In this document: positions 5,845 through 17,399 of the stretch, piece after piece
Position numbering within the stretch: the first letter of the stretch is position 1
Layout: every line of letters starts with the position of its first letter
Assembly: GCA_016699145.1 (NCBI GenBank)
Contig: CP064962.1
Coordinates: 810,001 to 842,000, forward strand
Direction: 5' to 3'
Length of the DNA: 32,000 nucleotides
DNA from: Candidatus Saccharimonadota bacterium
GTDB lineage: Bacteria; Patescibacteriota; Gracilibacteria; UBA1369; 2-02-FULL-48-14
Notes under the pieces: generated by a model
What the model saw: the letters and a program-made list of their open reading frames with translations, nothing else
The model's database searches: none
What the model was told of the DNA's origin: nothing
Translations under genes and position numbers: made by a program

Positions 5845-5928
5845 AGAGGAAAATAGGAGTGCGAACAAATGCTTGTTTTTAAAAGCAAAAAAAGTTAAAG
5901 TGGAACTACTTTTGGGGATTTCCCACGA

Positions 5929-5948
5929 CCCTGCCAGAAATGGCAGGG
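5929..5948 (+). terminator. Hairpin between convergent genes (possible terminator)
   Basis: CCCTGCCA-GAAA-TGGCAGGG is a perfect 8-bp stem followed by AAAATTTTTA. It lies between the stop at 5844 (+) and the stop at 5956 (-). Confidence 0.55.
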
Positions 5949-5955
5949 AAAATTT

Positions 5956-6342
5956 TTATAAATAAAGTTTTTGAAAACCAAGTCTTATGATTTTGAAGTC
6001 CGATTCATCAACAATGCCCACTTTAGAATAAAGCCGTCGATAATCGATAGTTCTGACTTGATGAAGGCAGGCGGTCACATTTCTCCCCCTCTGTTGGTAG
6101 TTCACGTACCAGCTGCCGACGTGCTTTTTTGTGGTGAGCGGAATTGCAAGATAAAACTCTTTCGACAGCTTTTTGAAGATCAAAACAGGACGAGTAAAGA
6201 GGTCACTTTTACCGTTGATCTCATACCCTATATTTTCACCCAAACTCGCCCACCAGACTTCTCCGGTATTCACATAAGGAATTTTTGGCCTGCGTAAATC
6301 CAGCTTTCGTTTAAGACCAATCCATTCTAAAAAACGTTTCAT
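5956..6342 (-). CDS. PemK/MazF-family toxin-like protein, no adjacent antitoxin ORF
   Basis: MKRFLEWIGLK...GEVWWASLGENIGYEINGKSDLFTRPVLIFKKLS...AIPLTTKK...LHQVRTIDYRRL matches the PemK/MazF SH3-like fold pattern. The start was set at ATG 6342 rather than the track start 6372. Confidence 0.7.
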   Translation of the reverse strand: MKRFLEWIGLKRKLDLRRPKIPYVNTGEVWWASLGENIGYEINGKSDLFTRPVLIFKKLSKEFYLAIPLTTKKHVGSWYVNYQQRGRNVTACLHQVRTIDYRRLYSKVGIVDESDFKIIRLGFQKLYL

Positions 6343-6455: not shown

Positions 6456-9400
6456 TCACTCCAAATAATGACTCCACGGTTCAATCGCTAAATCATCTAT
6501 GCTGTAGCGCTCAATGGAATCCACCATGAGTTTTGCAACTTTCAAATCAATGGTGAGCGAAATGTTGTTGTCGATGGTGAGGCGGCGAATTTGGTAGCCG
6601 AGCGTCGCATCTTCGTGGGAGTAACCACGTGGAATATTGATCACCCAACTGATTTTATCTTTTTTAATCAGCTCTTCACAGTTCGGGCTGAGGCCGCTGT
6701 CGATTTTATGCACTACGGTCACGGGCACCTCATTTTCTTCAAACACTTTCGCGGTTCCTGGCGTGGCATAAAGCGGATGTCCCCGCGCAACGAGCTTGCG
6801 AGCCGCGCTCAAAAAGTCTGCTTTGCCCTCAATACTTCCAATGGAGATGAGCACCGCACTTTCGGGTTTTGGGATTTCAAATCCGGTGGAAAGCATGGCT
6901 TTCAAAAATGCCTCATTCAGGTCGTCACCAAAACACGCCACCTCCCCTGTCGAGGCCATTTCCACCCCGAGCACAGGGTCTGCGCCCTTGAGACGAGAGA
7001 ACGAGAATTGAGGCGCCTTCACCCCAACGTAGTCCAAATCGAGCGTTTTATAATCGCGCTTTTTTGCCTTGCCCAGCATGGCTTCGGTCGCCACCTCAAT
7101 AAAGTTGTAACCCGTGACTTTCGAGCTGAACGGGAAACTGCGACTGGAACGCAAATTGCACTCAATCACTTTGATGTCATTGTTCACCGCCAGAAATTGA
7201 ATATTGAAAGGCCCCGAAATCTTCAGCGCCTCCGCGATTTTTTTTGCAATCAGGCGCACACGTTTGATCGTTTCTAAATACAATTTCTGCGGAGGCAAAA
7301 CAATGGTCGCATCCCCGCTGTGCACCCCGGCGTTTTCCACATGTTCCCCAATCGCATAAATCAAAAGTTCCCCATTTTGTGCCACTGCATCGATTTCAAT
7401 TTCCTTCGCACCGAGCTCAAATTTCGTGATCACCACGGGCGCTTCCTTCGAAATGCGAGCCGCCTTATCCAAATACGCACAAAGCCCCTCTTCATTTTGC
7501 GCAACAGCCATCGCCGCACCCGACAAAACGTAAGAAGGACGAACGAGCACGGGGTAGCCCACTGCATCCGCGAACTTGAATGCATCTTCGGTTTTTGCAA
7601 ACTCCTTCCACTTGGGTTGATCCACGTCCAGACGGTCCAAAAGTTGAGAGAATTTATGTCTATTTTCCGCCTGGTCGATGCTCCTCCCAGACGTTCCAAA
7701 AATGTTCACACCGGCACTGTCGAGTTTGTTCACCAAGTTATTCGGAATTTGTCCTCCCGTAGAAACCACCACGCCTTCAGGGTCTTCCAATTCATAAATG
7801 TCGAGCACGCGTTCCAAAGACAGCTCATCAAAATAAAGGCGGTCACACATGTCATAATCGGTGGACACGGTCTCGGGATTATAATTGATCATCATTGTCT
7901 CATAGCCGTTCGCTTGCAAGGTCTTCACCGCATTGATGGAACACCAATCGAACTCCACCGAAGACCCGATGCAGTACGCTCCGCTTCCTAGAACAATCGC
8001 CTTCTTTTTTGGCTCTTTTTTTGAAGTTTTACTGGGCGCAAAACCCACATCGTGTTTATCGCCATGATACGTGAGGTACAAATAATTCGTCTTCGCCGGA
8101 TATTCCGCCGCCATTGTGTCGATCTGCTTCACGGCAGGCAGCACTTTGAACTTTTTACGCAATTTGCGCACTTCCATTTCTTCGCAATTTCGGGTCAGTC
8201 CAATTTGCTTGTCGCTGAAGCCGAGCTTTTTTGCCGAACGCAGCAAGTCCTCATCCAGCTCTTCTTTTTCGAGCTGTGCATCCATATCTACAATGCGCTT
8301 CAACTTTCCAAGGAACCATGGATCCACTCCTGAAAGTTTATAAATTTCCATCACGTCCCAACCCTGGCGAAGGGCTTCTGCAATCGCAAGGATGCGTTTG
8401 GGCGTGGGCTTCGAAATTGCCGCTCTCAAATTTTCAGTGTCGATGTTCAGACGTTCATTGCCCGTGAGTCCAATCATTCCAATTTGCAGCATGCGCAGTC
8501 CCTTTTGAATCACTTCTTCAAAGCTGCGCCCCAGCGCCATGATTTCTCCAACGGACTTCATTTCGCTGGAAATGTGATGAGACACTTTGCGGAATTTATC
8601 CAAGTCCCAGCGAGGAATTTTCAAAGCCACATAGTCGAGCGCAGGTTCAAAACACGCGGTGGTCACACCGGTGATCGCATTGCGCAATTCGGGCAGGCTG
8701 TACCCAAGCGCCAATTTCGCCGCCACATAGGCGAGCGGATAGCCCGTAGCTTTGGACGCGAGTGCCGAGGAACGAGACAAACGCGCATTCACCTCAATCA
8801 CACGGTACTCTTCAGACTGGGGATCGAGCGCATATTGAATATTGCATTCCCCCACAATGCCGAGATGGCGTATCACTTTGAGTGCGAGTTCGCGCAGCAT
8901 GTGATATTCGCTGTTGCTCAAAGTTTGCGACGGTGCAATCACAATGCTTTCCCCCGTATGAATTCCAAGGGGATCAAAATTCTCCATATTACAAACCGTG
9001 ATGCAGTTGTCGTTCGAGTCGCGCACCACTTCGTATTCAATTTCTTTCCAACCCTTCAAACTTTCTTCCACCAAAACTTGGGGCGAAAAGGCAAAGGCGG
9101 TGTCCACGAGTTCCTTGAGTTCTTTTTCGTTGTTCGCAAAACCGCTTCCCTTCCCTCCGAGCGCAAAAGCCGCGCGCACCAAAAGTGGGAACCCAATTTT
9201 TTCGCCTGCTTTCATTGCCGCGCTGGCGCTGGTGCAGGCAATGGAGCGCGGCACCTTCACATCGATTTTTTGCAATTCTTTGTTGAAAAGTTCACGATCT
9301 TCCGTCTTTTCAATGGAGCTCACGGGCGTTCCATAAACACGCACATCGTACTTGTCTAAAATGCCCAAATTTTTCAAAGCCACTCCACAATTGAGAGCCG

Positions 9401-9790: not shown

Positions 9791-10123
9791 TCATTCCATC
9801 AACTTGGCCAAATTTTTTCGCACGCGATTCAAGACCGAAGTGCTAGCCTTTTCAATGAACTCCAAGCGTCTAGATTGCCAATCCACTGCTCGAATTTGAT
9901 CAGATAGCACAGCCCCCTCTAGCTGCAACTCCTTCAAGGGAACCTCAAAAGGATACCCTTTCACCTGAGAAGTAACAGGACAAATCAAGGCCATTCCGAT
10001 GCGATTGTAAGTGGAACTAGAAACAACCATGACAGGGCGACGCCCTTTTTGTTCATGCCCCAAAGTAGGGTCCAGCGTAAGCCATGCCAAATCACCTTGC
10101 TTGGGAATATAAACAGTCACCAT
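9791..10123 (-). CDS. mazF: MazF/PemK endoribonuclease toxin
   Basis: 110 aa. PKQGDLAWLTLDPTLGHEQKGRRPVMVVS...ICPVTSQVKGYPFEVPL...VLSDQIRAVDW is a classic MazF pattern. It overlaps mazE by 7 nt. Confidence 0.9.
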   Translation of the reverse strand: MVTVYIPKQGDLAWLTLDPTLGHEQKGRRPVMVVSSSTYNRIGMALICPVTSQVKGYPFEVPLKELQLEGAVLSDQIRAVDWQSRRLEFIEKASTSVLNRVRKNLAKLME

Positions 10124-10350
10124 ATTTCTTTTCCTACAGTGTCAAATTCTAAAAGTAAATCATGTCGATTTTCAGGAGTGATTTGAGCCACCATCTCTTT
10201 TAAGGTTTCTTCAGGAGGGGAAAGGATGATTTTTTTGCCCACCAATTGCATCTGAATCACGGTGCCCGCTTTAACGGGAATCGCTGCAGCAAAAACTTTA
10301 GGGATGCGCAGTCCCAAACTATTCCCCCATTTTGATACCTTGGTCTTCAT
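10117..10350 (-). CDS. mazE: MazE antitoxin (AbrB/SpoVT fold)
   Basis: MKTKVSKWGNSLGLRIPKVFA is the AbrB-type looped-hinge-helix motif. The start was set at ATG 10350. The 120-aa track ORF extension would overlap the comM 3' end. Confidence 0.88.
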   Translation of the reverse strand: MKTKVSKWGNSLGLRIPKVFAAAIPVKAGTVIQMQLVGKKIILSPPEETLKEMVAQITPENRHDLLLEFDTVGKEIW

Positions 10351-12931: not shown

Positions 12932-13324
12932 ATGGCCGATCTCAAAGTCCCTCCTCACAGTGTCGAAGCCGAAAAATCCGTGCTCGGATCGGTGATGGTG
13001 GAAAAAAACGCATTGCTTAAAATCGCAGACCTCCTTCAACCCGAGGACTTTTACTACGAGACCCACGCCAGCATTTACACTGGCATCCAGGAGCTTTTTG
13101 CAAAACGCAGTCCCATCGACATCCTCACGGTTAAAACCTGGCTCAAAGACAACGGCAAGCTCGACGAAGTCGGCGGCCAAACTTATTTGGAAGAAATGTG
13201 CAACGAAGTGCTCACGGCCTCACACGTCTTTCAATACGCGCTCATTGTCAAACAAAAATCCACGCTCCGTAAACTCATCACTTCCGGCGGCAACATCACC
13301 GCTTTAGCCTACAAAGAGGAGTAA
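12932..13324 (+). CDS. dnaB: Replicative DNA helicase DnaB, N-terminal domain segment, ending at an in-frame TAA
   Basis: MADLKVPPHSVEAEKSVLGSVM...PEDFYYETHASIY is the DnaB N-terminal domain signature. The start was set at ATG 12932. The segment ends at TAA 13322..13324, in the same frame as the next segment. Confidence 0.9.
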   Translation: MADLKVPPHSVEAEKSVLGSVMVEKNALLKIADLLQPEDFYYETHASIYTGIQELFAKRSPIDILTVKTWLKDNGKLDEVGGQTYLEEMCNEVLTASHVFQYALIVKQKSTLRKLITSGGNITALAYKEE

Positions 13325-13327
13325 GAA

Positions 13328-14287
13328 GTGGATGAGCTGGTGGACAAGGCGGAGCAAGAACTCTTCAAAGTCTCGCAAACCTTCATGCGCAATCGCTTCG
13401 TGCCCATCAAAGACATCCTCGCCAGCACCTATGAAAAAATTTCAGATCTCCATGATCCAGAAGCAGCCGCCAAATACAAAGGACTCGCCACGGGTTTTGG
13501 TTCCCTGGACCACTTGCTCACCGGTTTACAACCTTCCGACCTCATCATTCTCGCCGCCCGTCCCTCCATGGGGAAAACCGCCTTTGCTCTCAACCTGGGA
13601 CTCAATGCGGCACTGCGCGGCAAAAGTATAGGAATCATTTCACTCGAAATGTCCAAAGAACAACTTGTGGAACGCCTCTTCATTTCCATGCTCGGAGTGG
13701 ACAGTTGGAAGCTGAAGAACGGCCAACTCACCCAAGACGACTTCATGCGCATGGGCCAAGTTATGGATCAACTCAACAGCTGCAAAATCTTTATAGACGA
13801 TTCCGCCGGCGTCGCCACCTCCGAACTGCGTGCCAAGGCCCGCCGCCTGCAAATGGAGCACGGCCTCGACTTGCTCATTGTGGATTACCTTCAACTCATG
13901 TCCATGGGCAAGGGCATGCTCTCTATTACGAACCGCGTCCAAGAAATTTCCGAAATTTCTCGTTCCCTCAAACAGCTCGCTCGTGAACTGCACATCCCCA
14001 TCATGGCCCTCTCCCAACTCTCTCGTGCCGTCGAAGCACGTCCCGTTAAAATCCCGCAACTCTCCGACCTTCGCGAATCAGGAGCCATTGAGCAGGATGC
14101 AGACGTCGTAATGATGATGTACCGCGAAGATTACTACGAAGAAGACACCGAACGCCAAGGCATCACCGACATTTACGTGCGCAAACACCGCCACGGCATG
14201 GTGGGCCGCGCCGAACTCATGTTCCGCAAGGAGCAAATGAAATTCTACGACATCGACCGTCAACGAAGTGGAACTTTTGAGGATTAG
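13328..14287 (+). CDS. dnaB: Replicative DNA helicase DnaB, linker plus RecA-like C-terminal domain segment
   Basis: Contains TGFGSLDHLLTGLQPSDLIILAARPSMGKTAFALN (Walker A), LLIVDYLQLM (Walker B), ALSQLSRAVE and SDLRESGAIEQDADVV. It is in the same frame as 12932..13324, and the two pieces together span 452 codons. Confidence 0.92.
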   Translation: MDELVDKAEQELFKVSQTFMRNRFVPIKDILASTYEKISDLHDPEAAAKYKGLATGFGSLDHLLTGLQPSDLIILAARPSMGKTAFALNLGLNAALRGKSIGIISLEMSKEQLVERLFISMLGVDSWKLKNGQLTQDDFMRMGQVMDQLNSCKIFIDDSAGVATSELRAKARRLQMEHGLDLLIVDYLQLMSMGKGMLSITNRVQEISEISRSLKQLARELHIPIMALSQLSRAVEARPVKIPQLSDLRESGAIEQDADVVMMMYREDYYEEDTERQGITDIYVRKHRHGMVGRAELMFRKEQMKFYDIDRQRSGTFED

Positions 14288-14419
14288 AACCTATCTCAAA
14301 AAGACAGGAGCTCATCTAACTGACATATATAATTTAGATCGACATAGAATCTATTGATTTTCACTAAAAATAAGATCAATCTAACATATAGAACTTTAAA
14401 GATCTCTCTATATATATAG

Positions 14420-15775
14420 ATGAACTTAATCAATTGGCAACAATTTGGTTTAAAAAAAGACCCCTACGACACCCTTCCTTTAATTGAAGGTGGAGACGTC
14501 CCAATTGAGCAGGCTTTTGTAGGACGCACAAAAGAAATTCAAGCATTGGACAACCTTTTTAAATCTGAAAGTCGTTTTGCCTTAGCCATTTGTGGAGATG
14601 TAGGAGTAGGAAAAACAAGTCTAGCGAATTTCCGAAAATACATGTGGAAAACCGCTAAACAAAATTCAATCTTTTCTTTTAGACGTGAAATTGAAGCGAA
14701 TGACTACTTGCTGAATAAGCGCAACTTCATGATAGAAATCATAGGGTCTATTTTAAGAGAAATTAGGCTTCTTCAGCCTAAACTTTTAGAACAGAAGCTA
14801 CTCAAACGACTCAGCCAAATTGTAGACATCACTCAAACACTGAGTATCACAGGTGGCGCCAACATCTTAGGTTTCGGAGCAGATTTAGGGGTTGATAAAG
14901 CAAATTTTCCTCCAATCCAATTGGCGAATGCAAGTTTAGAGCAGTACTACTTAGAGCTCATTGATTTCATTAAAAAGACAGAAATCTTAAAGAAAAGATA
15001 CAAAGGCATTATTATCCACGTGAATAATTTTGATGTAGTCTTGAAGAACAAAGAAGGCCACCGAAAAGTGATCGATTTTTTTAACGAAATAAGAGACATA
15101 TTACAAACCCCCGATGTCTATTTCCTTTTCTTAGGCCCAAGGAATTTCTTTAAGGATATCATCAGCACACAAAAGAGAGTTGAAAGCATTTTCATTCGCA
15201 CACCTTTGTTCATCAATCCTTTAAGTAAAACCGAAATTGTAGAAGCTTTTAACGAAAGAATGAGTCTTTTAAAATCAGAAGGCGTCATTTCTTACATCAA
15301 GCCCGTAGAAGATGAAGTGATTTTTCAACTTTATGACCTGTATGGAGGAGATATAAGATCGATCATGTCAGCGGTGAGAGATATTTTAGGGCAGTACTCC
15401 GGCACCACTGCCCGGCCACTTCCCTATAAAGAAGCCCTTTATCTTCTGGGTAAAGAAAGGTGGGAGCGCATTGAAAATGAAGTGATAAGATTAACTCCAG
15501 AACAAAAGCAAGTTTTAGTTTACCTTGCCCGATCAGATAAATACATCAGCCAAAAAGAAATAGCTCAATTGTTCAAAAAAGCACAATCAAACGTGTCAGG
15601 CTACTACTTCAAGCCATTGAGAGAGTTGGACATCATTGAAGAAAAAGAAAAGATTGGAAGAGTCCCTTACTATGGTTTGACAATCAAGTATCAACCCATC
15701 AAATTCCTTGTAAACTCTAGGGAGGAACTTGTAAAATCTGCCAGGAAGAAAGGCAATCAACTCAACTTATTTTAA
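14420..15775 (+). CDS. P-loop NTPase (ExeA/AAA_22- or Orc1/Cdc6-like) with a C-terminal winged-helix domain; AT-rich, probably horizontally acquired
   Basis: 451 aa. The N-terminal FGLKKDPY...FVGRTKEIQAL is followed by Walker A GDVGVGKTS (14594..14620) and a Walker B-like IIIHVNNFD. The C-terminal LTPEQKQVLVYLARSDKYISQKEIAQLF...YFKPLRELDII is wHTH-like. The gene is markedly AT-richer than the flanking dnaB and lysS. Confidence 0.75.
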   Translation: MNLINWQQFGLKKDPYDTLPLIEGGDVPIEQAFVGRTKEIQALDNLFKSESRFALAICGDVGVGKTSLANFRKYMWKTAKQNSIFSFRREIEANDYLLNKRNFMIEIIGSILREIRLLQPKLLEQKLLKRLSQIVDITQTLSITGGANILGFGADLGVDKANFPPIQLANASLEQYYLELIDFIKKTEILKKRYKGIIIHVNNFDVVLKNKEGHRKVIDFFNEIRDILQTPDVYFLFLGPRNFFKDIISTQKRVESIFIRTPLFINPLSKTEIVEAFNERMSLLKSEGVISYIKPVEDEVIFQLYDLYGGDIRSIMSAVRDILGQYSGTTARPLPYKEALYLLGKERWERIENEVIRLTPEQKQVLVYLARSDKYISQKEIAQLFKKAQSNVSGYYFKPLRELDIIEEKEKIGRVPYYGLTIKYQPIKFLVNSREELVKSARKKGNQLNLF

Positions 15776-15776
15776 T

Positions 15777-17399
15777 ATGCCCTCTCAAGAATACAACGAT
15801 CGTCTTCGCAAAGCGGATGAACTCCGCAAGCTCGGAATCAACCCTTATCCCGCTCGCTACGAAGGGTCTCATTCGATTGCCGAAGTCCTCGCTTCCAAAA
15901 AAGCGCAAAAAACACGCAGCATCGAAGACATTTTGGCAGATAAAATTTCCACCGATTTCACGATCCGCGGTCGTCTCATGACCCTGCGTGAACACGGACG
16001 CTTAGCTTTCGCAAACCTAAAAGACGCAACCGGCACGATTCAAATCTGTTTTATGGAACAAGTGCTCGGTAAAGAAAATTACAAACTGCTCCGTAAAGTG
16101 GACATGGGCGACTTCATTGGCGCGTCTGGAGAACTGTTCATGACCAAGCACGGCCAGCTCACGCTTCTCATCAAAGACTGGACTTTTCTCGGCAAAACCC
16201 TACGTCCACTGCCTGAAAAATGGCATGGACTTCAAGATCAAGAAGCCAAATACCGCCAACGCTACCTCGACCTGGTGATGAGTGAAGAGACCACGTCCCG
16301 CTTTGTGTTTCGCAGTCGTTTCATCGAAGAAATCCGCCAATTCCTTAATTTGCACAGCTTCCTCGAAGTAGAAACCCCGGTGCTCGCGGCGATCGCCTCC
16401 GGCGCCACCGCTCGCCCCTTCCTCACGCATCACAACGCGCTCGACCTCGATGTACACCTACGCATCGCACCCGAACTCTATTTAAAACGCCTCATCGCCG
16501 GCGGCATGGAGCGCGTCTACGAATTCGCCAAATGCTTCCGCAACGAAGGCATGGATCCCTCCCACCTCCAAGAATTCACCATGCTCGAATATTACGGCGC
16601 TTATTGGAATTATGAGGACAACATGAACTTCACCGAAAAAATGCTCACCACGGTTATTAAAAAGCTTTTCGGCACGACAAAAATCAAAGTTCGCTCTCGC
16701 GACGGTAGCGATGTAGAAGTGGACTTCAAAGCGCCTTGGCCGCGTATTTCTTTTGGTGAACTCATCGAAAAAGACAGCGGCATCAAGATTTACGATTTTC
16801 TCACTCCCGAACATCCCGAAGGCGACGTCGTCGCCCTCCGCGCGGCCATTAAAAAAGCACGAGATCCACAGGGGCAAAAAATTATCCTCGAAGACGCTGA
16901 AAAAATGGGTTACGGAAACCTCTGTGATGCTCTCTACAAAAAAGTCAGCCGACCCAAACTCATCAATCCGTGCTTTGTGATCGACCACCCTGCCAGCACC
17001 ATGCCTTTAGCGCGTCGCAGCGATGAAAATCCAAAAGTGTGCGAAACTTTTCAACTCCTCGTGAACACTTGGGAAGTGGTCAAAGCCTACTCAGAGCTCG
17101 TGGATCCTGTGGACCAACGCGAGCGCTTCATTGAACAAGCCAAAGCCGCCGCCGGCGGAGACGAAGAGGCCATGGATATGGACCTCGACTACCTCACCGC
17201 GATGGAACACGGCATGCCCCCCATCTCTGGATTCGGCATGGGCATCGACCGCATCGTTACCCTTTTGACCGGCCAAGACAACCTCCGCGACGCCGTGCTC
17301 TTCCCCATCATGCGCCCTCTCGAGGAAGATCTCAAAGCCGCCAAAAAAATTGCAGAAAAAGCAAGAGAATCAGCGAAGAAAGGACACCGGAAGTCCTGA
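15777..17399 (+). CDS. lysS: Lysine--tRNA ligase, class II
   Basis: 540 aa. Has an OB-fold anticodon-binding N-domain and class II motifs (FLEVETPVL, YLRIAPELYLKRL, FRNEGMDPSHLQEFTMLE, GFGMGIDRIV). Its ATG is 1 nt after the upstream gene's stop. Confidence 0.97.
   Translation: MPSQEYNDRLRKADELRKLGINPYPARYEGSHSIAEVLASKKAQKTRSIEDILADKISTDFTIRGRLMTLREHGRLAFANLKDATGTIQICFMEQVLGKENYKLLRKVDMGDFIGASGELFMTKHGQLTLLIKDWTFLGKTLRPLPEKWHGLQDQEAKYRQRYLDLVMSEETTSRFVFRSRFIEEIRQFLNLHSFLEVETPVLAAIASGATARPFLTHHNALDLDVHLRIAPELYLKRLIAGGMERVYEFAKCFRNEGMDPSHLQEFTMLEYYGAYWNYEDNMNFTEKMLTTVIKKLFGTTKIKVRSRDGSDVEVDFKAPWPRISFGELIEKDSGIKIYDFLTPEHPEGDVVALRAAIKKARDPQGQKIILEDAEKMGYGNLCDALYKKVSRPKLINPCFVIDHPASTMPLARRSDENPKVCETFQLLVNTWEVVKAYSELVDPVDQRERFIEQAKAAAGGDEEAMDMDLDYLTAMEHGMPPISGFGMGIDRIVTLLTGQDNLRDAVLFPIMRPLEEDLKAAKKIAEKARESAKKGHRKS

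Follow-up and report, generated by a model that had tools for sequence, protein, structure and literature searches.

What kind of gene lies between dnaB and lysS in this patescibacterial chromosome, and how did it come to be there? We examined this question in a 32,000-nucleotide stretch of a Candidatus Saccharimonadota bacterium genome (contig CP064962.1, positions 810,001 to 842,000; referred to here as the window), in which the dnaB stop codon (14285-14287) is separated by a 132-nt gap with 26.5% GC from an open reading frame (ORF) of 451 amino acids at 14420-15775 on the forward strand. The ORF ends with a TAA at 15773-15775, leaving a single nucleotide before the lysS ATG at 15777 (TAAtATG), and Pfam identifies the products of its neighbors as a DnaB with N- and C-terminal domains and a class II lysyl-tRNA synthetase. 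Its GC content is 37.5% and its third-codon-position GC content (GC3) is 38%, compared with 52.1% for dnaB, 51.8% for lysS, and a GC3 of 59-63% for both flanking genes. The first-pass annotation of this DNA had reported an AT-rich ORF of this length between GC-richer neighbors (sampled lines at roughly 28-37% GC against often 50-70%), ending 1 nt before lysS, and our ORF call agrees on both composition and boundaries. The ORF is more than a chance reading frame, as homologs of the same length exist and a motif in its leader recurs upstream of them. We interpret 14295-15776 as a self-contained, horizontally acquired cassette of ~1.48 kb, made up of a 125-nt leader and one gene, that landed in the lysS promoter. 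Its product, predicted from alignment and a structural model to combine an Orc1/Cdc6-fold AAA+ ATPase, a lid, a winged helix-turn-helix (wHTH) and a clamp-binding-type tail, is most likely a sequence-specific DNA-binding switch. The anatomy of this unit (insertion, fold class, motifs and leader) is much more secure than the replication-coupled role that we discuss below.

Close relatives were found through similarity to LysS, and the contigs around their dnaB and lysS genes were then read. The junction is empty in two of them: L052 (LysS 90% identical) and L048 (84% identical) have an intact dnaB followed by lysS after a gap of 38 and 55 bp, respectively, with a TATAAT box just before the lysS ATG. 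Three others carry unrelated cargo at the same place, namely, a 167-aa gene on the opposite strand in L047, a 1130-aa gene together with a 166-aa gene in L046, and a 131-aa gene in L053. The gene order carB, comM, UPF0102, dnaB, lysS is common to the window and L047, and guaA comes next after lysS in L047, L048, and L053. Because the junction is empty in two relatives and holds unrelated cargos in three others, synteny indicates that it is a variable spot or hotspot, of which the 451-aa gene is one lineage-specific occupant. The first-pass annotation had proposed a horizontal insertion at this position and a comparison of the junction among related genomes; with LysS relatives at 84-90% identity showing either a 38- to 55-bp gap or different cargo, that proposal is borne out.

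Similarity between the window and the lysS promoter regions of its relatives ends after AACCTAT (14288-14294, forward strand), which is a remnant of the native promoter region. The lysS -10 box of L048, L053, and L046 is (C)AACCTATAAT or TATACT and lies 20-24 nt before the ATG, and in L052 and L047 the TATAAT lies only 6-8 nt before the ATG, a distance that suggests a leaderless or near-leaderless lysS mRNA in these two. Because the similarity to the relatives' promoters stops after AACCTAT, the left end of the insert would fall inside the lysS -10 box, giving predicted bounds of ~14295-15776 and a length of 1,482 bp. The lysS gene itself (15777-17399, forward strand; assigned by Pfam and by comparison with relatives) abuts the stop of the cassette and has neither a promoter nor a Shine-Dalgarno sequence of its own. 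With its own promoter gone, lysS transcription must, judging from this layout, run through the insert, within which a weak promoter-like site lies at 15708-15737. The dependence of lysS expression on the insert had been anticipated from its position and is strengthened by the broken -10 box. As a separate observation on LysS, several relatives (P0126, P0128, P0129, P0137, P0144, P0171, and the gene at L047:5001-7334) are 760-780 aa long and have an extra C-terminal region matching tRNA-synt_2c (an AlaRS-type family, PF01411) that the window LysS (540 aa) does not have.

The 451-aa protein belongs to a rare but widely scattered family. Searches at E<=1e-3 returned 256 homolog clusters among 5.8 billion, all with a length of ~450 aa and 55-66% identity to the window protein, and 40 loci were found in 185,579 species-representative genomes. 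Named hosts are Peregrinibacteria/Peribacteria, Gracilibacteria, and Staskawicz-, Moran-, Yonath-, Falkow-, Kerfeld-, Uhr-, Davies-, and Roizmanbacteria; a few further hits come from bins whose automatic labels are putative (Gammaproteobacteria, Saccharibacteria, Bdellovibrionales, Nanoarchaeota, and Margulisiibacteriota). Identity to the window protein does not track the named host lineage, with values of 63% and 53% in Falkowbacteria and 59% and 47% in Moranbacteria. The gene is AT-richer than its own flanks in 35 of 37 loci, and no conserved neighbor was found across the 37 other loci by all-versus-all clustering of 360 flanking ORFs and by Pfam and PADLOC scans of 132 neighbors. Those 132 neighbors contain 154 Pfam families, each in at most 4 of them, and the commonest neighbor, a ResIII helicase-nuclease, occurs at 5 loci. 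The ORF is intact and of uniform length in ~35 of 38 loci, with a mean column identity of 68%; at L016:82-1269 and L043:4793-6174 it is split into two ORFs by a frameshift or stop, possibly reflecting decay or assembly errors. A phage or plasmid origin was considered and set aside after searches of IMG/VR, INPHARED (GenBank phages), and PLSDB were all negative, although plasmids of the Candidate Phyla Radiation (CPR) and of DPANN archaea are poorly sampled, which limits the plasmid result. Patchy rarity, AT-richness relative to the flanks, unrelated neighbors, and identities that do not track host lineage argue for horizontal movement, and the intact uniform-length ORF, its column identity, and the conserved leader and terminal motifs described below argue for purifying selection. 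Taken at sequence level, these data point to a gene that is rare, stands alone, moves horizontally, and is kept under strong purifying selection.

An exhaustive profile search extended the family to 584 representatives at E<=1e-3, of which ~20 are core family members and the remainder are proteins of 400-545 aa that align over their full length. The named distant relatives come from DPANN archaea (Micrarchaeota and Woesearchaeota). Three archaeal-type loci were read, and in all of them the gene is solo, once beside type I restriction-modification (R-M) genes, once beside AbiEii toxin genes, and once amid housekeeping genes. Searches of Pfam, NCBIfam, PHROGs, PADLOC, and PDB sequences gave sub-threshold matches only and no curated family; the confident match to a characterized family unrelated to defense or replication, which would have counted against the first-pass hypotheses, did not appear. 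Our literature search likewise found no description of the family, and no solved structure covers the 451-aa protein. We present it as an undescribed family within the ORC/Cdc6-STAND-type world of AAA+-wHTH proteins.

To place the protein structurally, we used an AlphaFold model built from the 43 sequences of our core alignment, A1 (pLDDT 84.7, pTM 0.78), which is also the source of the statements on invariant residues below. The top Foldseek match in the PDB was an archaeal Orc1/Cdc6 chain, 2qby_A (E 3.5e-9, 436 columns), followed by 2v1u_A, 2qby_B, 1fnn_A, and 1w5t, with TM-scores of 0.40-0.55. Eukaryotic Orc4, Cdc6, and Orc1 ranked next, NLR/STAND proteins and RuvB ranked lower still, and viral structures gave weak AAA+ and RFC matches only. 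The alignments extend over ~430-490 columns, covering the AAA+ base, the lid, and the winged helix, and the top matches include archaeal Orc1/Cdc6 bound to origin DNA. The model thus predicts the three-domain Orc1/Cdc6 architecture of AAA+ base, lid, and C-terminal winged helix, in line with one of the two ATPase types, ExeA/AAA_22-type or archaeal Orc1/Cdc6-type, that had been suggested for this ORF. Membership in the ExeA, AAA_22, or STAND families, which had also been suggested, found no support, since every profile match fell below its curated threshold: AAA_16 scored 22.5 bits against a cut-off of 32.6, nSTAND1 18 bits against 27.1 (residues 30-69 only), and AAA_22 13.6 bits against 27 (E 0.085), with ATPase_2 sub-threshold as well. 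The N-terminal FGL..P[FY] is a presumed point of resemblance to ExeA/GspA-TniB. The proposed MarR-like winged helix fared better in one respect than in the other: a C-terminal winged helix is present in the model, but its MarR_2 match is below threshold (E=0.0012, 19.4 bits against 27), as is HTH_5 (E=0.017), both over residues 358-407.

The individual motifs are conserved to an unusual degree. The N-terminal signature W-QQ-FGL-x2-(D/N)PY-DT-x-PL-x-EGG (residues 6-25; 14435-14494, like all motifs of the protein on the forward strand) is invariant or nearly so in A1, and its core, W-x2-[YF]G[LF]-x2-NP[FY], is common to distant relatives. The Walker A motif GDVGVGKTS, reported previously for this ORF and confirmed here at residues 59-67 (14594-14620), is invariant from G62 to S67 in A1 and is kept in distant relatives. 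At the Walker B position the protein has HVNNFD (residues 200-205; 15017-15034), with H200, N202, N203, F204, and D205 invariant in A1 and the strand 196-202 ending at N202 in the model, so that Asn-Asn replaces the Asp-Glu of AAA+ proteins. The superfamily-wide pattern here is h-h-h-H-x-[ND]-N-h-[DE] rather than the catalytic hhhhDE. Because Walker B Asp-Glu is Asn-Asn, and given the established roles of these residues, the protein probably binds nucleotide through its intact P-loop and hydrolyzes it poorly or not at all. Further along, RVESIF (residues 253-258; 15176-15193; R253 and F258 invariant in A1, RVxSIF kept in distant relatives) has what we take to be a likeness to DnaA/Orc1 box VII, and the lid contains a sensor-2-like GDIRSIM (residues 310-316; 15347-15367; G310 and R313 invariant), which reads G[DNK]IR across the superfamily. 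The wHTH spans residues ~356-422 (15485-15685), as placed by the model and by sub-threshold matches to MarR_2, HTH_5, and 2d1h, with helices at 360-371, 378-384, and 389-402 and a hairpin at 406-420; its recognition helix, SNVSGYYFKPL, has N391, S393, and Y396 invariant in A1. Between the strands 84-92 and 196-202, the model places helices at 95-97, 100-118, 120-146, and 170-186, an insert that lies where the HEH/ISM would be and may correspond to it.

The strongest functional clue offered by the sequence is the tail. The protein ends in QLNLF-COOH (residues 447-451; 15758-15772), which by sequence is a canonical beta-sliding-clamp-binding motif. Such motifs follow Q-phi-x-[LM]-[FL] or Q-phi-x-[LM]-x-[FL], often stand at the extreme C terminus, and include QLNLF as the motif of Pol V/UmuC (PMC11139829). 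Of 135 family members, 69 have the strict motif within their final 14 aa; for comparison, it is seen in 4 of 4181 internal windows and in the tails of 4 of 326 neighbor proteins. A looser version (QPTLF, QSTLF, QLSLGI, QLSLPI, and similar) is found in 111 of 135 CPR members (82%) against a background of 3%. In 33 of 109 distant archaeal-type relatives, the tail bears a PIP-like Qxx[LIMV]xx[FYW] instead, compared with 0.3% of internal windows. In the model, the confidence of the tail falls from a pLDDT of 63 to 42, indicating a flexible segment, as expected of a docking peptide. The conserved activity appears to need tethering to the sliding clamp of the host, with a peptide type matched to the host domain, and the apparent switch of docking peptide between bacterial and archaeal members provides sequence-level evidence for clamp tethering as the conserved function.

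The second feature that travels with the gene is its leader (14295-14419, forward strand; ~125 nt, 26% GC), which consists of ATATAG repeats around an AT-rich spacer. Like the Asn-Asn Walker B and the clamp-binding-type tail, its conservation across the family was absent from the first-pass annotation. In an alignment of the 150 nt upstream of 33 homologs, this architecture is kept in at least 24 loci. The distal repeat, ATCTAACTGACATATATAATTT (14314-14335, forward strand), is the first copy of a direct repeat that is 77% identical to 14375-14396 at a spacing of 61 nt; the ATCTAAC words previously noted at 14314 and 14379 are both present and are parts of this single 22-nt repeat. Other loci have equivalent distal (T)TGATATATAGAAAAA-like motifs, with an ATATAG-type copy ~60-100 nt upstream. 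The proximal copy (14375-14396, forward strand) holds a left half-site, AACATATAG (14383-14391), which is followed after 16 nt by a perfect 12-bp palindrome, CTATATATATAG (14408-14419), that provides the right half-site or half-sites and abuts the ATG. Across at least 24 of the 33 loci, the proximal inverted repeat takes the form (A/T)(C/T)ATATAG-N15/16-CTATAT(A/G)TATAG and ends 0-20 nt before the ATG, and the half-site spacing is 15-16 nt in nearly all loci. The pattern [AT]TATAG-N13-18-CTATA[AT] occurs 26 times in the 458 kb made up of the loci and the window, 24 times in leaders of the 451-aa gene family and twice in the duplicated leader of L007. At that locus, the leader stands on both sides of the gene (5872-6007 and 7358-7494) with a period of 1486-1487 bp, matching the unit length of the window insert, which may reflect cassettes in tandem or an integration event that recombined inside the leader.

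Because the spacing is fixed at about two helical turns, the pattern is specific to this gene, and the recognition helix is invariant, the inverted repeat is most probably a protein-binding site, with the encoded wHTH as its likely binder, and this is a better reading than one based on RNA. A structured leader RNA was considered and rejected, as the window hairpin has a predicted energy of -6.4 kcal/mol (z = -1.18) and the alifold consensus -1.16 kcal/mol with a 16-nt "loop." A general promoter motif was rejected since, within the 458 kb, the pattern occurs only at the 451-aa gene family. Perfect DnaA boxes (TGTGGATAA) are present in 8 of the 33 leaders (L003, L006, L020, L021, L022, L023, L028, and L041), 33-135 nt upstream of the gene start, in one orientation throughout and at no fewer than two different positions with respect to the repeats. 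If up to one mismatch is allowed, boxes are found in 16 of 33 leaders, at a density of 2.1 per kb in leaders compared with 0.39 per kb overall. Leaders of DPANN relatives (L049:4820-5000, L050:400-574, and L051:4910-5000) contain TATAG/CTATA palindromes too, for example, TATAGTTATATAACTATA in L049, so the self-site seems to predate the divergence of the CPR and archaeal branches. Two smaller observations concern the same regions: the DnaA box of L023 is part of a TTATCC..GGATAA palindrome, and a similar sequence, TGTGAATAAGT, also lies 5' of the ResIII gene in L006 and L022.

Taken together, an AAA+-wHTH protein, repeats around an AT-rich stretch, an inverted repeat at the gene start, DnaA boxes, and a clamp motif are the combination expected of an origin-initiator module. 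We tentatively favor the reading that the gene encodes an initiator or regulator coupled to replication, which came from a mobile module of this kind, and is not a housekeeping gene; we regard this as quite possible while stopping short of calling it probable. In such a mechanism, the winged helix would most likely bind the ATATAG half-sites of the leader (present twice in direct and once in inverted orientation, with a fixed 16 nt between the proximal pair), leading to autoregulation and possibly to an origin-like nucleoprotein site. The protein would bind nucleotide through its P-loop with little or no hydrolysis, and its flexible QLNLF would dock it on the beta sliding clamp, i.e., on DNA under or just after replication, where it may initiate or modulate replication locally.

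Several observations weigh against this reading. Orc1/Cdc6 membership is unsupported at the level of sequence, as phmmer and hmmsearch comparisons with PDB sequences gave no Orc1/Cdc6 match. Of the features expected of an origin-initiator module, the window has the repeats and the AT-rich leader, and DnaA boxes are found only in the leaders of relatives. Because the window leader has no DnaA box and the window has neither a box cluster nor a skew turn, the cassette here is not a long-standing active origin; as the host oriC, the window was rejected on the last two of these grounds (9 DnaA boxes versus 5.7 expected, and no GC-skew turn at 14.3 kb). A free replicon carrying the module is undocumented in the phage and plasmid collections searched above. 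About 18% of members do not have even the loose clamp motif, a short C-terminal motif can arise by convergence, and the named archaeal relatives P0401, P0412, and P0436 have no clean PIP box. Finally, some loci lie beside restriction or toxin genes, a setting that fits defense equally well. A broader version of the proposal is decidedly improbable in our estimate, namely, that this is a portable 1.5-kb origin-initiator module common to CPR and DPANN, in which an archaeal-type initiator crossed domains, exchanged its PIP tail for a beta-clamp motif, and nucleates or modulates replication at its own ATATAG/DnaA-box site in bacterial chromosomes.

Comparison with known systems shows where an origin-initiator module would resemble them and where it would not. 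Archaeal orc1 genes adjoin ORB-containing origins, and the 451-aa gene adjoins short direct and inverted repeats (candidate binding sites) flanking an AT-rich stretch. Archaeal Orc1/Cdc6 proteins (2qby, 2v1u, and 1fnn) are its best full-length Foldseek matches and share the AAA+ base, helical lid, and C-terminal winged helix at a similar size, as well as a GDxR sensor-2-like motif; a helical insertion between strands 2 and 3 of the model may correspond to theirs. The sequence identity to them, however, is only 13-15% with no profile-level match, Walker B reads NN instead of DE, the bacterial host relies on DnaB and not MCM, the C-terminal clamp motif is not an Orc1/Cdc6 feature, and the gene is accessory and mobile rather than a host initiator. 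Iteron plasmids also place a winged-helix initiator(-type) gene after repeated binding sites (putative here), together with an AT-rich stretch, a DnaA box (here in many family members), and an inverted repeat at the promoter of the gene itself, and RK2 TrfA binds the clamp through QLSLF, a motif of the same type (PMC8034659). Rep proteins, in contrast, consist of tandem WH domains without an AAA+ module, TrfA carries its motif at the N terminus, the databases searched yielded no plasmid or phage copy of the 451-aa family, and typical origins are far longer than its leader. Hda, a DnaA-related regulator of initiation that depends on the clamp, is likewise a small initiator-clade AAA+ protein that is tethered to the clamp by a terminal QL-x-L-x-L/F motif, a tethering that is putative here, and acts as a nucleotide-state switch and not a motor (PMC11139829 and established knowledge). 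Its motif, however, is N-terminal, it has neither a wHTH nor a DNA site of its own, it is a vertically inherited proteobacterial core gene, and no sequence similarity was detected between it and the 451-aa protein.

The main rival to a replication-coupled role is defense. As a single-gene or minimal antiphage or antiplasmid system, an ORC/Cdc6-type ATPase with a wHTH could sense or capture a replicating invader through the clamp, alone or with a separate nuclease, and we consider this somewhat unlikely. Its patchy distribution, AT-richness, and horizontal transfer would suit such a system, and BREX BrxC and related "capture" systems are built around ORC/Cdc6 AAA+ and wHTH modules (PMC12839542). 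At 5 loci, the gene is followed after 65-99 bp by that of a ResIII helicase of ~892 aa with a PD-(D/E)xK nuclease domain (PADLOC mad2-like); DpnI, DpnII, and patatin genes adjoin the Orc1-like gene at other loci; and archaeal relatives adjoin type I R-M and AbiEii genes. The protein also shares the ATPase-wHTH order and some island-like loci with the ORC/Cdc6-STAND-type conflict ATPases (BrxC/BrxD, DUF499, nSTAND1, and archaeal ATPase_2/COG1672-like), with weak profile likenesses to AAA_16 in 18 of 43 members, nSTAND1 in 12 of 43, and ATPase_2 in 5 of 43, and to BrxC_BrxD (E 0.0011) in one distant relative. All of these matches are below curated cut-offs, however, and the protein ends after the wHTH and one helix, with no sensor repeats (TPR, WD40, or LRR) and no effector profile detected; it is also much smaller than BrxC and not part of a multigene operon. 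PADLOC-DB v2 gave no significant defense match, the best being PDC-S27 (E 0.00096, 16 bits) over 38 P-loop residues. Most loci are solo amid housekeeping genes, and the unusually high conservation, with an invariant recognition helix and a conserved self-site, is the opposite of what is seen in fast-evolving defense sensors. The ResIII proteins do not track the gene either, since those of L006 and L030 are 91% identical while the Orc1-like proteins beside them are 54% identical.

The ResIII genes merit a description of their own. They lie at L006:1790-4465, L022:6825-9509, L026:7443-10118, L030:1571-4120, and L037:1052-2656, and their products have a C-terminal TnsA-like/PD-(D/E)xK domain and are mutually 67-91% identical, compared with 51-71% for the adjoining Orc1-like proteins. 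The PADLOC mad2 profile was matched by 5 of the 132 scanned neighbors, the ~892-aa ResIII protein being the likely source. At L028, a 31-aa fragment of the ResIII N terminus lies upstream of the Orc1-like gene.

A second alternative, improbable in our view, is that the protein senses ATP and controls its own gene along with a small accessory regulon, as an ordinary transcription factor and miniature relative of the AAA_16/LuxR- or MalT-type regulators, with a clamp motif that may couple transcription to replication. Its best, if weak, Pfam matches are to AAA_16 and wHTH families, the palindrome overlaps the likely promoter directly upstream of the ATG, and a clamp-dependent transcription activator has a precedent in phage Mu MuC (PMC12867686). 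Yet the 458 kb of flanking DNA contains no further copy of the operator, leaving the gene itself as the sole visible target; the gene travels alone, without regulated cargo; and the DnaA boxes and initiator-type fold favor replication over transcription. It is very unlikely that the insert is what is left of an integrated element, now decaying and without function: a solo gene without a recombinase and the interrupted copies in L016 and L043 would be expected of a remnant, but the ORF is intact in nearly all loci and well conserved, and conservation of the noncoding leader motifs and of the terminal motif indicates purifying selection. Scarcely credible is a helicase loader or initiator partner for the adjoining, interrupted DnaB, an idea prompted by the position of the gene directly downstream of a dnaB with an in-frame stop and by the established place of the loaders DnaC and DnaI among initiator-clade AAA+ proteins, but largely refuted by synteny, as dnaB adjacency is confined to the window (1 of 38 loci, with no conserved neighbor at the other 37), and DnaB is intact in the closest relatives, from which the gene is absent. 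Known loaders also lack a wHTH, a self-operator, and a clamp motif, and the stop in dnaB is a single-base change that could be an assembly error.

The interruption itself is real in the assembled sequence. The dnaB gene (12932-14287, forward strand; assigned by Pfam and by alignment with relatives) contains one in-frame TAA at 13322-13324, where three relatives with an intact DnaB of 450-454 aa have GAA or GAT (Glu/Asp), and the remainder of the gene is ~90% conserved. The first-pass annotation had called DnaB "unusually split" and suggested a functional link to the 451-aa protein; the gene is indeed interrupted, by this one G-to-T change, and the suggested link is not supported. The TAA could be a recent nonsense mutation, the mark of a two-piece DnaB, or an assembly error. 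AAAGAGGAG lies just 5' of a GTG at 13328, from which re-initiation is conceivable. Elsewhere in the window, a MazF/PemK toxin gene (110 aa) and its MazE antitoxin gene lie at 9791-10341 on the reverse strand, between carB and comM; in the syntenic L047, their place is taken by a 255-aa gene unrelated to them, which makes this a second variable spot in the window.

For the family, then, these analyses describe a group of proteins confined to ultrasmall CPR and DPANN organisms and absent from curated libraries, joining an initiator-type AAA+ fold, a putatively hydrolysis-impaired active site, a co-traveling DNA site, and a putative clamp-docking peptide. For this organism, the local consequence is that lysS, an essential gene, no longer has a promoter of its own and would now be expressed through a foreign gene. 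If the link to replication is true, minimal origin-initiator or replication-control units would move among the genomes of tiny symbionts, possibly across domains.

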